From positions 576,001-640,000 of the forward strand of contig CAVXJS010000021.1 of the NCBI GenBank assembly GCA_963762145.1: a DNA stretch of 64,000 bases, written 5' to 3'. Below are positions 36,898 to 56,556 of this stretch, piece after piece. A model generated the notes under the pieces. The model ran no database searches. It saw only the letters and a list, made by a program, of their open reading frames with translations, and was not told where the DNA came from. Source of the stretch: an uncultured Candidatus Rokubacteria bacterium. Lineage in GTDB: Bacteria > Methylomirabilota > Methylomirabilia > Rokubacteriales > CSP1-6. How positions within the stretch are numbered: the stretch's first letter is position 1; the number at the start of each line of letters is the position of its first letter. Position numbers and translations under genes: made by a program.

Positions 36898-37167
36898 TCA
36901 CGGCTGGTACGGCGCCTCGGACCGGGGCGCATGAGGCAGCTGCTCGTCCAGAGACTGGCGATAGCTCAGGCATCCCCGCAGGAACTCCGGCCACGTGGGG
37001 ACCGTCGGCACGGGATCCGTCTTCTCGGGTAGGAGGCCCCAGAGATCCGGGTGATGCCAACAAAGATCGTGTCCGGTGCTGTCTCGGTGCGTCCGGATCC
37101 CCGCGCGCAGCCGTCTGGCCTCGTCAATCAGCCGCTCGCGCGTCATGCCCTCGAGATCCTCGTCCAT
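36898..37167 (-). CDS. Conserved-type hypothetical protein
   Basis: RLRAGIRTHRDSTGHDLCWHHPDLWGLLPE; compact ORF in the co-oriented array. Confidence 0.7.
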   Translation of the reverse strand: MDEDLEGMTRERLIDEARRLRAGIRTHRDSTGHDLCWHHPDLWGLLPEKTDPVPTVPTWPEFLRGCLSYRQSLDEQLPHAPRSEAPYQP

Positions 37168-37173
37168 CGAGCG

Positions 37174-37554
37174 CTATTCAACGATCTTCCAGTAAGAGTC
37201 CTTGCGTAGGACCTTCCCGCCACGGAACTCCCAGTGATCGCACCCTCGGACCTCTACCTTGCGGCCATCCTTCGTCGTACCGGTCAGCAACCACTCTGAT
37301 ACGCCCATGCTGCCCGACACCCAGTGTCGATCGTCGCCATAGTGCACGTCAGGAGTCGCTTCGAACCTCATCGCCAGGCCCTTGCGCACCCCATCCTTTC
37401 CGGTGAAGCGAGTGCCCCACGGCTTACTGCCCCTCGGCATGTCCAGCGATGAGTCCTCGGCAAAGTAGCCCATGATCTTGTCCAGGTCGTGGGCATTGAA
37501 TGCCGCGGCCAGCTCGAGAAGCAGCTGATAATTGGCCTCTTCCTCGTTCGTCAT
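37174..37554 (-). CDS. SnoaL/NTF2-like protein
   Basis: AFNAHDLD, PDVHY, GVSEW, VRGCD, KDSYWKIVE. Confidence 0.88.
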   Translation of the reverse strand: MTNEEEANYQLLLELAAAFNAHDLDKIMGYFAEDSSLDMPRGSKPWGTRFTGKDGVRKGLAMRFEATPDVHYGDDRHWVSGSMGVSEWLLTGTTKDGRKVEVRGCDHWEFRGGKVLRKDSYWKIVE

Positions 37555-37598
37555 AGTCGCTCTTGTCCTCTCTGGGTTTCGACCGCCGGTCTGACCCC

Positions 37599-38129
37599 TT
37601 ATCGAACACGCCTTGCCCGGTCGAGGAACGCCTCCATCCGTACCTTTTCATCCTCCATGTCCTCCCTCGACCAAGAGGAGCCGGACTCAAAGGTGGCGCC
37701 GTCGGACATCTTGACCATCAGAGTATAGCTGGGAGGACCATCGCTCCACTCATGGGCCCGCACATGGACGCTCTCGAGCGAAGACAGCGGAAGCACCCGC
37801 GTCCGATGTGGAACGACCGGCGCCCCCGTCGAGTACGTGAACGTCGCACGCGCCGCATCGAGGGTCATCCGGGAGCTCAGCCCCGCGACCGCGGCGAATA
37901 CCAGCAACGCGCTCAGCGCGACCGCCCCCGCCGAGATGATCGCCGCGAACAGAAACGCGGGGTGCCGGTAGTCGTTCCATTGGACACGCCATATTAGCTC
38001 GTATGGTGCGAGCAGCGGAATCAAGGCGAGCAACGCAAAGAGGAGCCGCTTCCCGGGCGGCATCGGCGAGAAGACATCGAGACGCTCGTCGGTCTCGGAG
38101 ACCTGGATCCTGGATGCCCCGCTCATCAT
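37599..38129 (-). CDS. Hypothetical membrane protein
   Basis: Two TM segments then a beta-rich domain; start overlaps the upstream stop. Confidence 0.65.
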   Translation of the reverse strand: MMSGASRIQVSETDERLDVFSPMPPGKRLLFALLALIPLLAPYELIWRVQWNDYRHPAFLFAAIISAGAVALSALLVFAAVAGLSSRMTLDAARATFTYSTGAPVVPHRTRVLPLSSLESVHVRAHEWSDGPPSYTLMVKMSDGATFESGSSWSREDMEDEKVRMEAFLDRARRVR

Positions 38130-38930
38130 TGCCGCGAGTCGAGGAACTCCTCGATCAGGCGTGCGGTCAGCTCGGGGTAGCGGGTGTCCGTCTGCGTCAT
38201 CACGACCTCGCCAAGATAGTCCCCATGTCCACCGGGCAACACCAGCAGGCGCGCACCTGAAATCAGCCGAGTCAGCTCGACGGCATGCTCGAGCTTCACG
38301 ATGTCCCGGTCTCCAAGGACGATCAACGTCGGCGCACTCACCGAGCGCACCATATCATCCGGCACATCCTTGAAGTTCTGCATCCTCGCCGCGTCTTTGT
38401 CGTGCATGGTCTTGAGTTGCCGCGCATCCGGGTTCACCCGCAGGAACGCGTCCTTGAGCAGCTTGTGGCATATTCGAGAAGTCGGCCTGCTTCATGAATT
38501 CCCAGAGCTGGGGCTGAGCGCCGGCCTTCTTTGTGATCGACGAAGCAAAGACCAGCCTTCGAACCAGCTGCGGATGCCGTATGGCGACCTGGAGCGCGAC
38601 GCTGGCGCCGTTGCTGAAGCCCAGGATGTCGGCCTTTTCGACTTTCAGATAACGAAGTAAGGCCGCAACGTCGTCCGCGGAGGCTTCGAAGGTAACTGGT
38701 GCCTCGCGATCGCTCGTTCGGCCGTGCCCCTGTTCCTCCACCGCGATCACCCTTCGGCTCCTGGCCAGAACCGGAAGCGCTCTGCCGAACGTGACCTCGA
38801 TGGTCGACCCACCGCCGTGAAGCAGGACCAGCGGCACGCCGTCTCTGCGCCCGTGCACCTCATAGTACATGTTGATGCCGTTGACGGGCGCATGGCCGCT
38901 CTCCAGCGCCTTCGCTTGCGGGGTTGACAT
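38126..38930 (-). CDS. Alpha/beta hydrolase, frameshift near 38460
   Basis: MYYEVHG, LLHGGG, QGHGRT, GFSNGA; second frame PTLIVLGDRD, PGGHG. Confidence 0.85.
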
Positions 38931-38938
38931 GTTATGCG

Positions 38939-39887
38939 CTAGTCGCGTGCTGAATACCAGTCCAGCACCCGTAGGGCGCGGAGCGTGTTCCAGCGGCTGG
39001 GCTTTCCTGCCCCGCCTTCCATGTCGAGCTGGACCGGATCGGGGTGGTGCTCGTGAAGCGCCCATCGTCCGTCCTGATTCCGTCTGCTGGTCACGAGACC
39101 GACCGCCTCGGCAACGCGCTCGTCCGGCTCGACGCCGGCGGCGCGCAAGTAGTCCAGGCCCCTGAGCACGTCGTAGTGCCACGTGGGCGGGAACGCGAAC
39201 CGCGTCCAGTCGTGATTGCCCTTTCGGTCCATGACCACCTCACCGGTTGACAGCCTCCGGAACAAGCGACGCGTCAGGAGGTACTCCTGGGCCCGGCCCC
39301 GCGCGTCCGTCACCGGCGGCCATGGCGCCTCTGGTCTTCTCGTACGCCAGGAGCCCTTCGAGGACGCAGATCGTGGTGTGGAACGACGACCGCACGGAGC
39401 CGCGCTCCGCCTCGCAGTTCCAGCCGCCGTCCGCGAGCTGCTCGCCCAGGAGCCGATCGAGCAGCCGATCGCTCGTCTCACCGAAGTAGGCGCCGAGCGC
39501 CAGGACCCGGCCGTTGATGCAGGGCTCGACCTCGCCCTCGAAGAACGGCGAGTCCCCGAACTCCGACCCCCAGGTGACCTGCTCGCGCACGAGCCCCACG
39601 GCCCTGCGGGCTCGCTCGCTCGTCGGGTCGAGACCCATATCCCGCAGCAGCACCAGGGTGCACAGGGTGGACTGCCAGTGCGGTGCGGCGATGCCATCAC
39701 CCCACTTGCCGTCCGGCCGCTGACGGTCGAGCAGCCGGGAACCCCAACCCTCGGCGGCGACCCGCGCTCGTTCACCGGCAACGGCCTCGTCGGGCTCGCC
39801 GCAGAGGTCGCGCATGACCTGCCAGCAAATCGAAGGGTCCGAATCGAGCAGCCAGGGTATGACCGATTCCCTCGGCTCCGGGATCAA
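38939..39887 (-). CDS. Prenyltransferase/squalene-cyclase repeat protein, frameshift near 39315
   Basis: WLLDSDPSI.WQVMRDL, QRPDGKW, EVEPCING, QLADGGWNC, FAFPPTWHYDVLRGL, PSRWNTLRALRVL. Confidence 0.8.
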
Positions 39888-55396: not shown

Positions 55397-55792
55397 TCAC
55401 TCGATGACTTCATCTGCATGCACCAGCAGTGATCGAGGGATCGTGAGACCAAGCGCCGTGGCGGTTCTCAGGTTGATGATCAGCTCGAACTTCGTGGGCT
55501 GCTCCACGGGGAGGTCACCCGGCTTGGCGCCCTTCAAGATCCTGTCCACGTACTCGGCAGCTCGACGATAGATCTGCCGTCGATTGACGCCGTACGACAT
55601 CAACCCGCCCTCCTCGGCATAGTCTCTGCCCGGGTACATCGCCGGGAGCCTGACCTTTGCTGCAAGATCGGCGATCTGTCGGCGAAGGCTGTACGTCAAT
55701 GGATCCGGGATGACGAGCAAGCCACCTGCGCCAGCCGCGATCGCGGCCTCGAACTGGCGTGGCACCTGATCGGCGGTTCTCGCCTCAACCAA
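55397..55792 (-). pseudogene. C-terminal part of a PF04392-type substrate-binding protein between two attC sites
   Basis: [42 protein letters not shown]-terminal lobe absent. Confidence 0.85.
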
Positions 55793-55828
55793 GCCGACCG
55801 AGTTCGCGACCTCGCGCCCATCCCTGCC

Positions 55829-55889
55829 CTCTAACGTTTGAGCTCAGCGGCGGCCTGAAAGGGCCGTCCGCTGCAGCGACTTGTTAGGT
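55829..55889 (-). repeat. attC site of the first cassette
   Basis: ACCTAAC-AAGTC-GCTGCAGC ... GCTGAGC-TCAAAC-GTTAGAG; gene stop TAA lies in R''; R'' is complementary to GTTAGGT at attI. Confidence 0.95.
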
Positions 55890-56198
55890 GGAATACGCTG
55901 GGCCACCTATGCCAGGAACCACCACTGTTTTAAAGATTGCCGATTCCCGGTCGGTTGCCAACGACAAGAGCTCGAGGTCAGCGCGATAGGCGGCGAACTG
56001 CTCCTGGCCAGGGAAGCTGACAAGATGTATCTCAAACGGGATATCTGGCGAATTCTCTTGCCCCGTGCGAACCACCTTTTCAATTGAGCCGCCATACTTC
56101 CTCATGATTCGGGCCGCCTTTCGCTCATAGGCTTCGAATTCAGCAACGGCGCCTGGGCGGACCCACAGACTTACGACCCGATAGATTGGACTCTGCAC
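55884..56198 (-). CDS. DUF1330-like dimeric alpha-beta barrel protein (first cassette)
   Basis: GGAGG RBS; FEAYERKAARIMRKYGG, PFEIHLVSFP, FAAYRAD. Confidence 0.8.
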   Translation of the reverse strand: MQSPIYRVVSLWVRPGAVAEFEAYERKAARIMRKYGGSIEKVVRTGQENSPDIPFEIHLVSFPGQEQFAAYRADLELLSLATDRESAIFKTVVVPGIGGPAYST

Positions 56199-56214
56199 TC
56201 AAACCTCCAAGCCC

Positions 56215-56290
56215 ACCTAACTAGAAGTATCCCGGGCCGCATATTTCCCCCCCCCGGGGTGGGTCTGATGCGGATAATCCCGGCCGGATG
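56215..56290 (-). other. attI-like recombination site
   Basis: Minus strand ...GGCCGGGATTATCCG...GGCCCGGGATACTTCTA-GTTAGGT; GTTRRRY core at the head of the first cassette with no attC palindrome upstream. Confidence 0.7.
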
Positions 56291-56401
56291 GCCGGGTGAT
56301 GTGGCGGGAGCGGCGCGTGGGGGCACGTGGTTGCGCATGGTCCCGGGGTGCTCAGTTTTACACGGACCTGGGTATTTCTGGTGGGGATTGGGGATGGGCG
56401 A

Positions 56402-56556
56402 TTAGAGGAGAGGGAGGCGGTCGGCGGGGCTGAGGACGCCGGCGGGGCCTCGGTTGAGAACGTCGGTGTAGATCATGGTGGTCGAGACGTCGCGGTGGCC
56501 GAGGGGCTGCAGTGGCGGGCGCGCAGGGCCGCGCGCACGCGATCCAATAGCCGCGG
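56402..56556 (-). pseudogene. intI: Integron integrase relic: N- and C-termini only
   Basis: [18 protein letters not shown] joined (frame offset at ~56503) to [30 protein letters not shown], both characteristic IntI termini. Confidence 0.9.

Follow-up and report, generated by a model that had tools for sequence, protein, structure and literature searches.

The window analysed here is a stretch of 64,000 nucleotides from an uncultured Candidatus Rokubacteria soil bacterium (Methylomirabilota; contig CAVXJS010000021.1 of assembly GCA_963762145.1, positions 576,001 to 640,000 of the forward strand). A preliminary description, made from the letters alone, had read its positions 36898–56556 as an integron in reverse orientation, with a dead integrase gene (intI) and a decaying cassette array. 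Guanine-plus-cytosine (GC) content was 70–75% in 2-kb intervals outside this array and 60–67% over ~36.9–56.5 kb, a drop from ~72% to ~63% that supports the integron reading. Over the same segment, nearly all open reading frames (ORFs) with coding-like GC by codon position lie on the minus strand. Read along this strand from the upper end, an integrase remnant is followed by a conserved spacer, the heptamer GTTAGGT (56221–56215) and the first ORFs. After each of ORFs 1–3 comes an imperfect palindrome with xxxxAAC at its start and GTTxxxx at its end. The intI relic, the core of the attI site, all four intact attC sites and nearly all plausible ORFs are carried by this one strand. The array ORFs belong to SnoaL-type, glyoxalase, GNAT, ABM, PNPOx, RibD_C and DUF1801 families of Pfam, and further to 3-dmu-9_3-mt, LysE, NmrA and a Tdi1-like immunity domain. 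Small families such as SnoaL-type, glyoxalase and GNAT are typical of environmental integron cassettes.

The intI relic (56402–56576, minus strand) consists of the start codon, ~20 N-terminal codons, and the last 33 codons with the stop. The C-terminal 33 residues (56503–56405) matched positions 286–315 of the 315 in TIGR02249 (E 4.7e-10), and matched XerC/D models far more poorly (E ≥ 0.002). This tail also matched residues 291–320 of the Vibrio IntI4 of PDB 2a3v (E 7e-7) and so is, judging from profile comparisons, specific to the IntI family. The N-terminal piece, a 20-residue peptide in another frame (56559–56500), had no family match of its own in NCBIfam; its identity rests on tblastn matches to the intI N-terminus of nine relatives and on alignment to them.

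We gathered these relatives by a genome scan with the protein of the conserved flank gene (56650–57629, plus strand; query 56766–57629). This gene carries an HExxH motif and a Pfam DinB_2 domain, is divergent from intI, lies outside the integron and served as the anchor for the comparison. The scan yielded 80 loci (numbered L001 onward), most of them titled Rokubacteria, Rokuibacteriota or Methylomirabilota metagenome-assembled genomes; the flank protein of the closest, L001, was 97% identical to that of the window. With the L001 integrase as tblastn query, we found intI upstream of the flank gene at nine of the 80 loci (L001–L006, L008, L011 and L021). At 15 loci the flank gene is preceded by less than 1400 bp of sequence, and even so one of these, L003, holds intI. 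Eight of the nine genes are full-length ORFs of 325–352 aa, and the ninth, in L005, is split. The L001 and L002 integrases scored 457.8 and 439.7 bits against TIGR02249 (cut-off 265), and residues 13–326 of the L001 protein aligned end to end with residues 6–320 of IntI4 (2a3v; E 6.5e-87), including a stretch aligning with the IntI-specific insertion. intI was found only in a subclade with flank-protein identity of 85% or more, and the same tblastn search found none at L007, L009 and L013.

At all nine loci intI lies on the strand opposite the flank gene, which is the attC strand wherever attC sites were detected (L001, L002, L004 and L005). The window has the same layout: the minus strand carries both the relic and the four attC sites, and intI has its 3′ end toward the attI core, 181 bases away (56401–56221). 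Thus the inverted layout, with intI co-oriented with the cassettes, is present both in the window and in relatives with full-length intI. The preliminary description had placed intI on the cassette strand with its 3′ end toward attI, and had predicted relatives with an intact intI beside the same HExxH/DinB flank and other first cassettes; both points held.

Comparison with the intact orthologues located the damage to the base. Relative to the intI of L001 and L002, an internal segment of 808 bp (L001 8932–9739) is gone from the window, with the junction between 56511 and 56510; this length is not a multiple of three, so the deletion is out of frame. In L001 the 5-bp sequence GCAGC stands at both ends of the missing segment, and we infer that the deletion arose through microhomology between the two copies. 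A second lesion removes 7 bp between 56559 and 56558, near the intI start, and puts the N-terminal codons beyond it out of frame. As a third lesion, Asp replaces His after the Tyr of the I-Y-T-H motif. The remaining relic DNA is 86–88% identical to L001. This is similar to the 91.7% found in the blastn segment 56505–58312, which covers the N-terminal relic piece, the flank gene and DNA beyond, and the similarity suggests that the integrase was lost fairly recently. The dead intI had been called correctly. When we searched the whole window with the L001 integrase (tblastn), only residues 295–328 found a match, that is, no second intI lies within the 64 kb. A complete integron needs a functional intI, which relatives have at this locus and the window lacks. 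Since the recombinase gene is gone, the local element can neither insert nor excise cassettes.

Downstream of the intI stop, the putative attI region (56215–56401, minus strand) is a conserved spacer that ends in the core GTTAGGT, with the crossover predicted between G and TT. The window, L001, L002, L004, L021 and L005 align over the ~190-bp spacer up to a common TAGTT and diverge completely after GTT. Identity to L001 is 249 of 289 aligned bases (86%) ahead of the core, and beyond it drops to 15 of 39. This abrupt stop of conservation at the core is the pattern expected of cassette insertion between G and TT. The GTTAGGT core that the preliminary description had likened to attI thus reads as such on the minus strand, where the conservation of six loci ends, and the element has a predicted attI site beside intI.

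To avoid circularity, we searched for attC sites with a covariance model trained on relatives only. This model, R1, was built from 10 attC hairpins of L001, L002, L004, L009 and L013, which had been collected by a generic scan for AAC...GTT pairs and hairpin energy; none came from the window. R1 was run on both strands of the whole window with filters off, and a second model, R2, was built from 21 sites of relatives; E-values of both are rough owing to shortened calibration. Nine of the 20 modelled pairs of R1 show compensatory changes, 89.5% of cells are paired against 26–38% with slid partners, and none of 500 shuffles reached the observed score. Exactly four sites, all on the minus strand, were strong in both models: attC 3 at 54756–54830 (R1 50.5 bits, E 9e-12; R2 58.0; fold z −2.8), attC 2 at 55311–55380 (R1 43.5; R2 45.8; z −3.7), a fourth intact site at 46868–46925 directly after an ABM-domain ORF (47272–46931; R1 42.1; R2 38.1; z −1.0), and attC 1 at 55829–55889 (R1 33.3; R2 37.5; z −3.2). 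They are the four sites that had been pointed out by eye as canonical. The next-best R1 matches were a 26.6-bit echo of 55311–55380 on the reverse strand and then hits of at most 19.2 bits. One of these, at 61902–61960 (19.2 bits), falls in GC-rich coding sequence beyond the array and was treated as noise.

As an empirical control of specificity, R1 gave 24 matches at E ≤ 0.01 over 1.08 Mb of related loci; these fell in only eight of the 80 loci, and all 24 were on the strand opposite the flank-gene match. The bottom strands of attC 1–3 fold, as single-stranded DNA, better than shuffled sequences, with bulges on the 3′ arm. The sites of the window, 58–75 nt long and GC-rich, are imperfect R″-L″...L′-R′ palindromes with conserved AAC/GTT, bulges and a single orientation, as attC sites are. 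Rfam at gathering thresholds reported nothing in the window, as expected, since attC is not an Rfam family. Used as a detector, the generic AAC...GTT and hairpin-energy scan found three of the four sites together with many unrelated GC-rich hairpins on both strands. A truncated attC suspected by eye after ORF 54702–54433 (~54425–54375) was reported by neither R1 (E ≤ 10) nor R2 (E ≤ 1).

The three sites next to attI delimit three cassettes on the minus strand. Cassette 1 (55829–56220) holds a 104-aa ORF with a weak DUF1330-like match (56198–55884) and attC 1; cassette 2 (55311–55834) holds an ORF (55792–55397) that is the C-terminal third of a PF04392 ABC substrate-binding protein, matching only positions 199–293 of the 293 in the profile, and attC 2; cassette 3 (54756–55316) holds a PNPOx-like ORF of 146 aa (55281–54841) and attC 3. 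L001 has a cassette related to cassette 2 at 4412–4791. Cassettes 1 (GTTAGGT/ACCTAAC) and 3 (GTTAGCC/GGCTAAC), the two that had been singled out for this signature, each begin with a core that is the exact complement of their own R″, whereas in cassette 2 only four of seven bases are complementary. We then scored all 17 cassettes between consecutive detected sites, leaving out site pairs more than ~1.6 kb apart (three cassettes from the window, five from L001, two from L002, four from L009 and three from L060). The four variable core bases were perfectly complementary to the cassette's own R″ in eight of the 17 (two of three in the window); for the resident R′ of the same site, the count was three of 17 (shuffle P = 0.0005).

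Taken together, these results make it very probable that the segment is a chromosomal integron of a Rokubacteria lineage with the inverted-integrase layout, at a locus where close relatives have a full-length intI. IntI recombines a folded single-stranded attC with double-stranded attI for insertion, and attC with attC for excision (PMC12614218). At the working loci, IntI would thus join the folded bottom-strand attC of an incoming cassette to the attI core between G and TT, and each new cassette would enter next to attI in the orientation of intI. The intI of the window was destroyed by the 808-bp deletion between the two GCAGC copies and by the 7-bp deletion. Intact attC sites are kept by the three cassettes nearest to attI, presumably the newest, and by one at 46.9 kb; farther from attI these sites are mutated, truncated or lost, with some genes split or truncated. 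With decayed sites and broken genes away from attI, the distal array is read as a fossil. Cassette order would then reflect age.

The layout has been described before. An "inverted integrase group" is named in PMC3575428 and was described with Treponema and found to be paraphyletic in PMC4889954. By orientation, the present element is like this group, including the Treponema integrons, in having intI co-oriented with attC, and its host is from the Rokubacteria of the Methylomirabilota. Of the attC sites, three cluster within 1.1 kb and the fourth is 7.9 kb off, and the sole intI is a relic; the array therefore classifies as a cluster of attC sites lacking integron-integrases (CALIN). Cury et al. 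(2016; PMC4889954), who cluster CALIN sites by a 4-kb rule, report intI pseudogenes near 15 of 279 CALIN. The window resembles those cases in its attC cluster, its lack of a working integrase and an intI remnant within 10 kb. It differs from them in that the remnant is far below the 50% profile coverage required there, so that this and similar coverage-based screens for intI pseudogenes would miss it, and in that intact orthologues make it possible to map its deletion to the base. Sedentary chromosomal integrons, defined in the same source by more than 19 attC sites or presence in all genomes of a species, are another matter: here there are four strong sites, and intI is at the locus in nine of 80 related loci.

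Two other systems offer further comparison. The Vibrio cholerae IntI4 and Vibrio cholerae repeat attC system (2a3v) is similar in that the L001 IntI aligns and attC bulges lie on the bottom-strand 3′ arm, and dissimilar in that the array here is small, with short GC-rich attC sites and no toxin-antitoxin cassettes recognised in it. Xanthomonas integrons have the classical divergent layout. They occupy a fixed locus downstream of ilvD, with lineage-specific intI inactivation after which arrays were more stable (PMC12444791). The present element shares with them a chromosomal locus that is fixed and was presumably passed down in the clade, and lineage-specific loss of intI; it differs in phylum and flank gene, and here intI is found only in the subclade with at least 85% flank identity. 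The element thus combines known features, an inverted layout, a CALIN-like state and intI inactivation, in the Methylomirabilota.

We wondered how far the array extends. Its middle part (46931–54755, minus strand; GC 60–65%) is filled with small cassette-type ORFs, mostly followed by no recognisable attC: an 89-aa ORF, SnoaL_3, glyoxalase, a split PF04392 gene, RibD_C, LysE, 3-dmu-9_3-mt, NmrA-like, GNAT and ABM (Pfam). Between the SnoaL_3 ORF (54279–53794) and the glyoxalase ORF lies a decayed attC (53723–53783, minus; R1 16.8, R2 17.7 bits). It is the orthologue of an intact L009 attC (6628–6688, 49.5 bits), from which it differs by an AAC to AAT change, a 4-nt spacer deletion and a GTT to GCT change; in the alignment, the adjoining cassettes are swapped at the core among L009, L013 and L001. 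At this one site, decay is observed directly. A second candidate, at 51976–52070 (minus), keeps its R″ half with an altered 3′ half (R2 19.2 bits, E 0.021). It aligns with attC 2 and with the L001 attC at 4412–4481, and it follows the frameshifted PF04392 gene (53065–52709 and 52712–52077); R1 gave it 12.2 bits, less than the 17.8 on the opposite (plus) strand, and with a fold z of 0.0 it is weak taken alone.

Segments of the array recur, in another order, in the stretches that precede the flank gene of L009, L013 or L001: 36898–37167, 39233–39875, 40920–41095, 46628–46907, 47919–48742 and 50654–51341, at 82–94% DNA identity. A seventh, 53253–53784, is common to both L013 and L001. Three of them (53253–53784, 50654–51341 and 47919–48742) are 92–94% identical to L013 or L001, again in different order. 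The 3′ half of the attC at 46868 and the next ORF (46855–46634) match L009 7391–7669 at 92.5%.

Below this site lies a tightly packed block (42109–46855, minus) of a 73-aa membrane ORF, a PEP-mutase-like ORF, a 226-aa ORF, a SulP/STAS transporter and a 403-aa ORF, with gaps of 3–21 nt. Within this block a cassette homologue was found for 46628–46907 only, and cassette origin is established just for the first ORF. The distal low-GC part (36870–42108, minus) holds Tdi1-like, RibD_C plus DUF1801, alpha/beta hydrolase, SnoaL_2 and small ORFs (Pfam). It ends with ORF 37167–36898 and then a truncated R″-like stub (~36877–36872). The ORF has a counterpart in L009 (DNA 82%, protein 84% identical), a cassette lying between two attC sites. 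The stub is directly followed by the ribosome-binding region of a gene (36851–36096) whose GC at third codon positions (GC3) is host-like, 0.93. The lower boundary at 36898 given in the preliminary description is thus accurate to ~30 bases. Its ~20-kb decaying array gains from the mutated attC, the remnant, the stub and the shared segments, and goes too far for the block at 42.1–46.6 kb, where cassettes were not demonstrated; that the entire 19 kb once consisted of cassettes is therefore something we infer.

Several observations weigh against the integron reading. Only four strong attC sites occur in 19.3 kb, and weak R1 matches are no denser in the array than in the rest of the window. The site at 46868 and the remnant at 52007–52070 fold no better than shuffles (z −1.0 and 0.0). 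In L001, by contrast, the first ~4.2 kb after attI contain six attC sites detected by the covariance model and a 125-nt site that the hairpin scan alone picked up. The distal part of L001 (1–4400) has no strong attC and two weak ones of ~16 bits, despite the intact intI of this locus, and holds homologues of two cassettes of the window. Loss of attC far from attI therefore occurs with an intact intI, and distal decay need not follow integrase loss. The left-flank proteins (31.6–36.9 kb), searched by tblastn against all 80 loci, gave neither synteny nor an empty site. Finally, a consensus scan of the minus strand at 56100–56700 found no sigma-70-like promoter near attI, though the consensus may not fit the promoters of this phylum; read-through from intI is a possible route of cassette transcription in the inverted layout.

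Of the alternatives, the one that survives best keeps only the attI-proximal 1.5 kb and scattered pieces as integron, and takes most of 36.9–54.7 kb for other acquired or accessory DNA, such as operons or island fragments, joined to the array by rearrangement. Many junctions from ~48.7 kb down to 36.9 kb leave 3–21 nt, no room for an attC, and with their overlapping ORFs resemble operons; the 566-aa SulP/STAS transporter has a host-like GC3 of 0.89; and from 36.9 to 46.8 kb neither model gave an attC match that reached 13 bits. These points argue for such an island and against a continuous array. Set against them, L009 has the last ORF as a cassette with an attC site on either side, and the segments at 39.2, 40.9, 46.6, 47.9, 50.7 and 53.3 kb recur in the arrays of relatives in other order. 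Almost all ORFs have the cassette orientation, GC is uniformly lowered, and the Pfam content (SnoaL, glyoxalase, GNAT, ABM, DUF1801) is that of soil cassettes. We regard the island as unlikely overall, yet to be taken seriously.

A second alternative accepts the integron but not its immobility: another integron integrase, encoded outside the window, might still excise and reorder the cassettes with intact attC sites in trans. The four sites do score like untrained sites of relatives with an intact intI (33–50 versus 32–50 bits), and according to PMC4889954 half of all CALIN sit in genomes with IntI elsewhere. An attC cluster with no intI nearby also exists elsewhere in this group, in the more distant Rokubacteria locus L060, where six attC-model matches (25–48 bits; 13866–16636, minus strand) lie downstream of the flank homologue. 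This is a separate cluster at another position, and its 17-kb locus has no IntI match. The window itself, on the other hand, encodes no second integrase, and insertion at attI in trans would alter the word "frozen" and not the identity of the element. Action in trans seems to us doubtful. Of the earlier phrase "frozen after loss of the integrase", the loss at the locus stands, and the freezing is an interpretation, as a trans integrase could act on the four sites; for the inverted integron proposed here, the array is probably immobile now. That an error of assembly or consensus produced the intI deletion, in an organism with an intact integrase, is very improbable: the relatives are metagenome-assembled and the window may be too, and a 1-bp insertion in the flank gene could be a sequencing error, but the 5-bp junction repeat is too short for assembly collapse, the relic is damaged independently at two more places, by the 7-bp deletion and by the change of His to Asp, and intI is independently disrupted in L005 and missing from L007, L009 and L013.

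The disruption in L005 and the intI-less loci L007, L009 and L013 indicate that intI loss is common in the clade. Counting these with the 808-bp deletion of the window, we tentatively consider a broader picture, in which a Rokubacteria subclade carries an inverted integron at one locus, has lost its integrase several separate times, and shares cassettes among arrays at 82–94% identity. If this is so, the locus offers a natural time series for the rate at which attC sites and cassettes decay once recombination stops.

Integrons outside Proteobacteria and the clinic are poorly described. In listings of titles and abstracts, in which subscription journals are mostly not covered, integrons of Rokubacteria or Methylomirabilota were the subject of no paper that we found; genomes of this kind may be tabulated in large surveys such as IntegronFinder 2.0. 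The locus gives a base-level view of the death of an integron, from the intI deletion between 5-bp repeats through point mutations of AAC/GTT to truncated and split cassette genes, and intact orthologues allow the decay to be compared directly. It does not change the known mechanism of integrons; it is a cleanly documented case that would not surprise a specialist.

The loci around the flank gene vary further. In L009 (8155–9869) and L013 (8945–9869), cassettes and attC sites lie upstream of the flank gene with neither intI nor a recognisable attI; their flank proteins are 87–89% identical to that of the window. Between the flank gene and the first attC, L009 has a carbonic anhydrase gene (Pfam Pro_CA), and L013 has an ORF that, by eye, may be ureidoglycolate-lyase-like. 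L008 (intI 213–1190, flank gene from 3360) and L011 (intI 738–1775, flank gene from 3047) have a gap of ~1.3–2.2 kb between intI and the flank gene, compared with ~70–210 bases in the window, L001 and L002; by this comparison, extra DNA has been inserted there. Compared with L001 and L002, the flank gene of the window carries an insertion of 1 bp at ~56747 (56740–56755, plus strand), which cuts the first ~33 codons (start near 56650) from the rest; the ORF reopens at 56766. The insertion is a true frameshift or else an error of sequencing.

PF04392 ABC substrate-binding genes recur in these arrays. The window has three copies, the truncated one of cassette 2 (55397–55792), the frameshifted one at 52077–53065 and an intact one in the left flank (33919–34926), and the family is also present in L001 at ~3300–4791; the copies are 45–51% identical in protein. 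Cassettes built on this family number three in the arrays: cassette 2, 52077–53065 and L001 ~4489–4791. A host PF04392 gene ending in an attC-like hairpin was considered as a cassette source, and the models gave no match near 33919. The PF04392 cassettes and the left-flank copy together hint that cassettes were made within the lineage from host genes, which, if true, would bear on the open question of cassette origin.

Two minor features lie in the distal part. A 331-aa ORF (39884–40879, minus) joins RibD_C (aa 9–207) to DUF1801 (aa 231–326), and RibD_C also stands alone at 51398–51949; the joined ORF may be a natural fusion, or may have formed from two cassettes when the attC between them was lost. 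An AHSA1 fragment (40906–41124, plus) runs against the orientation of the cassettes and covers 35 of 125 profile positions; its identity to the end of locus L009 (1–175) is 83.5%.

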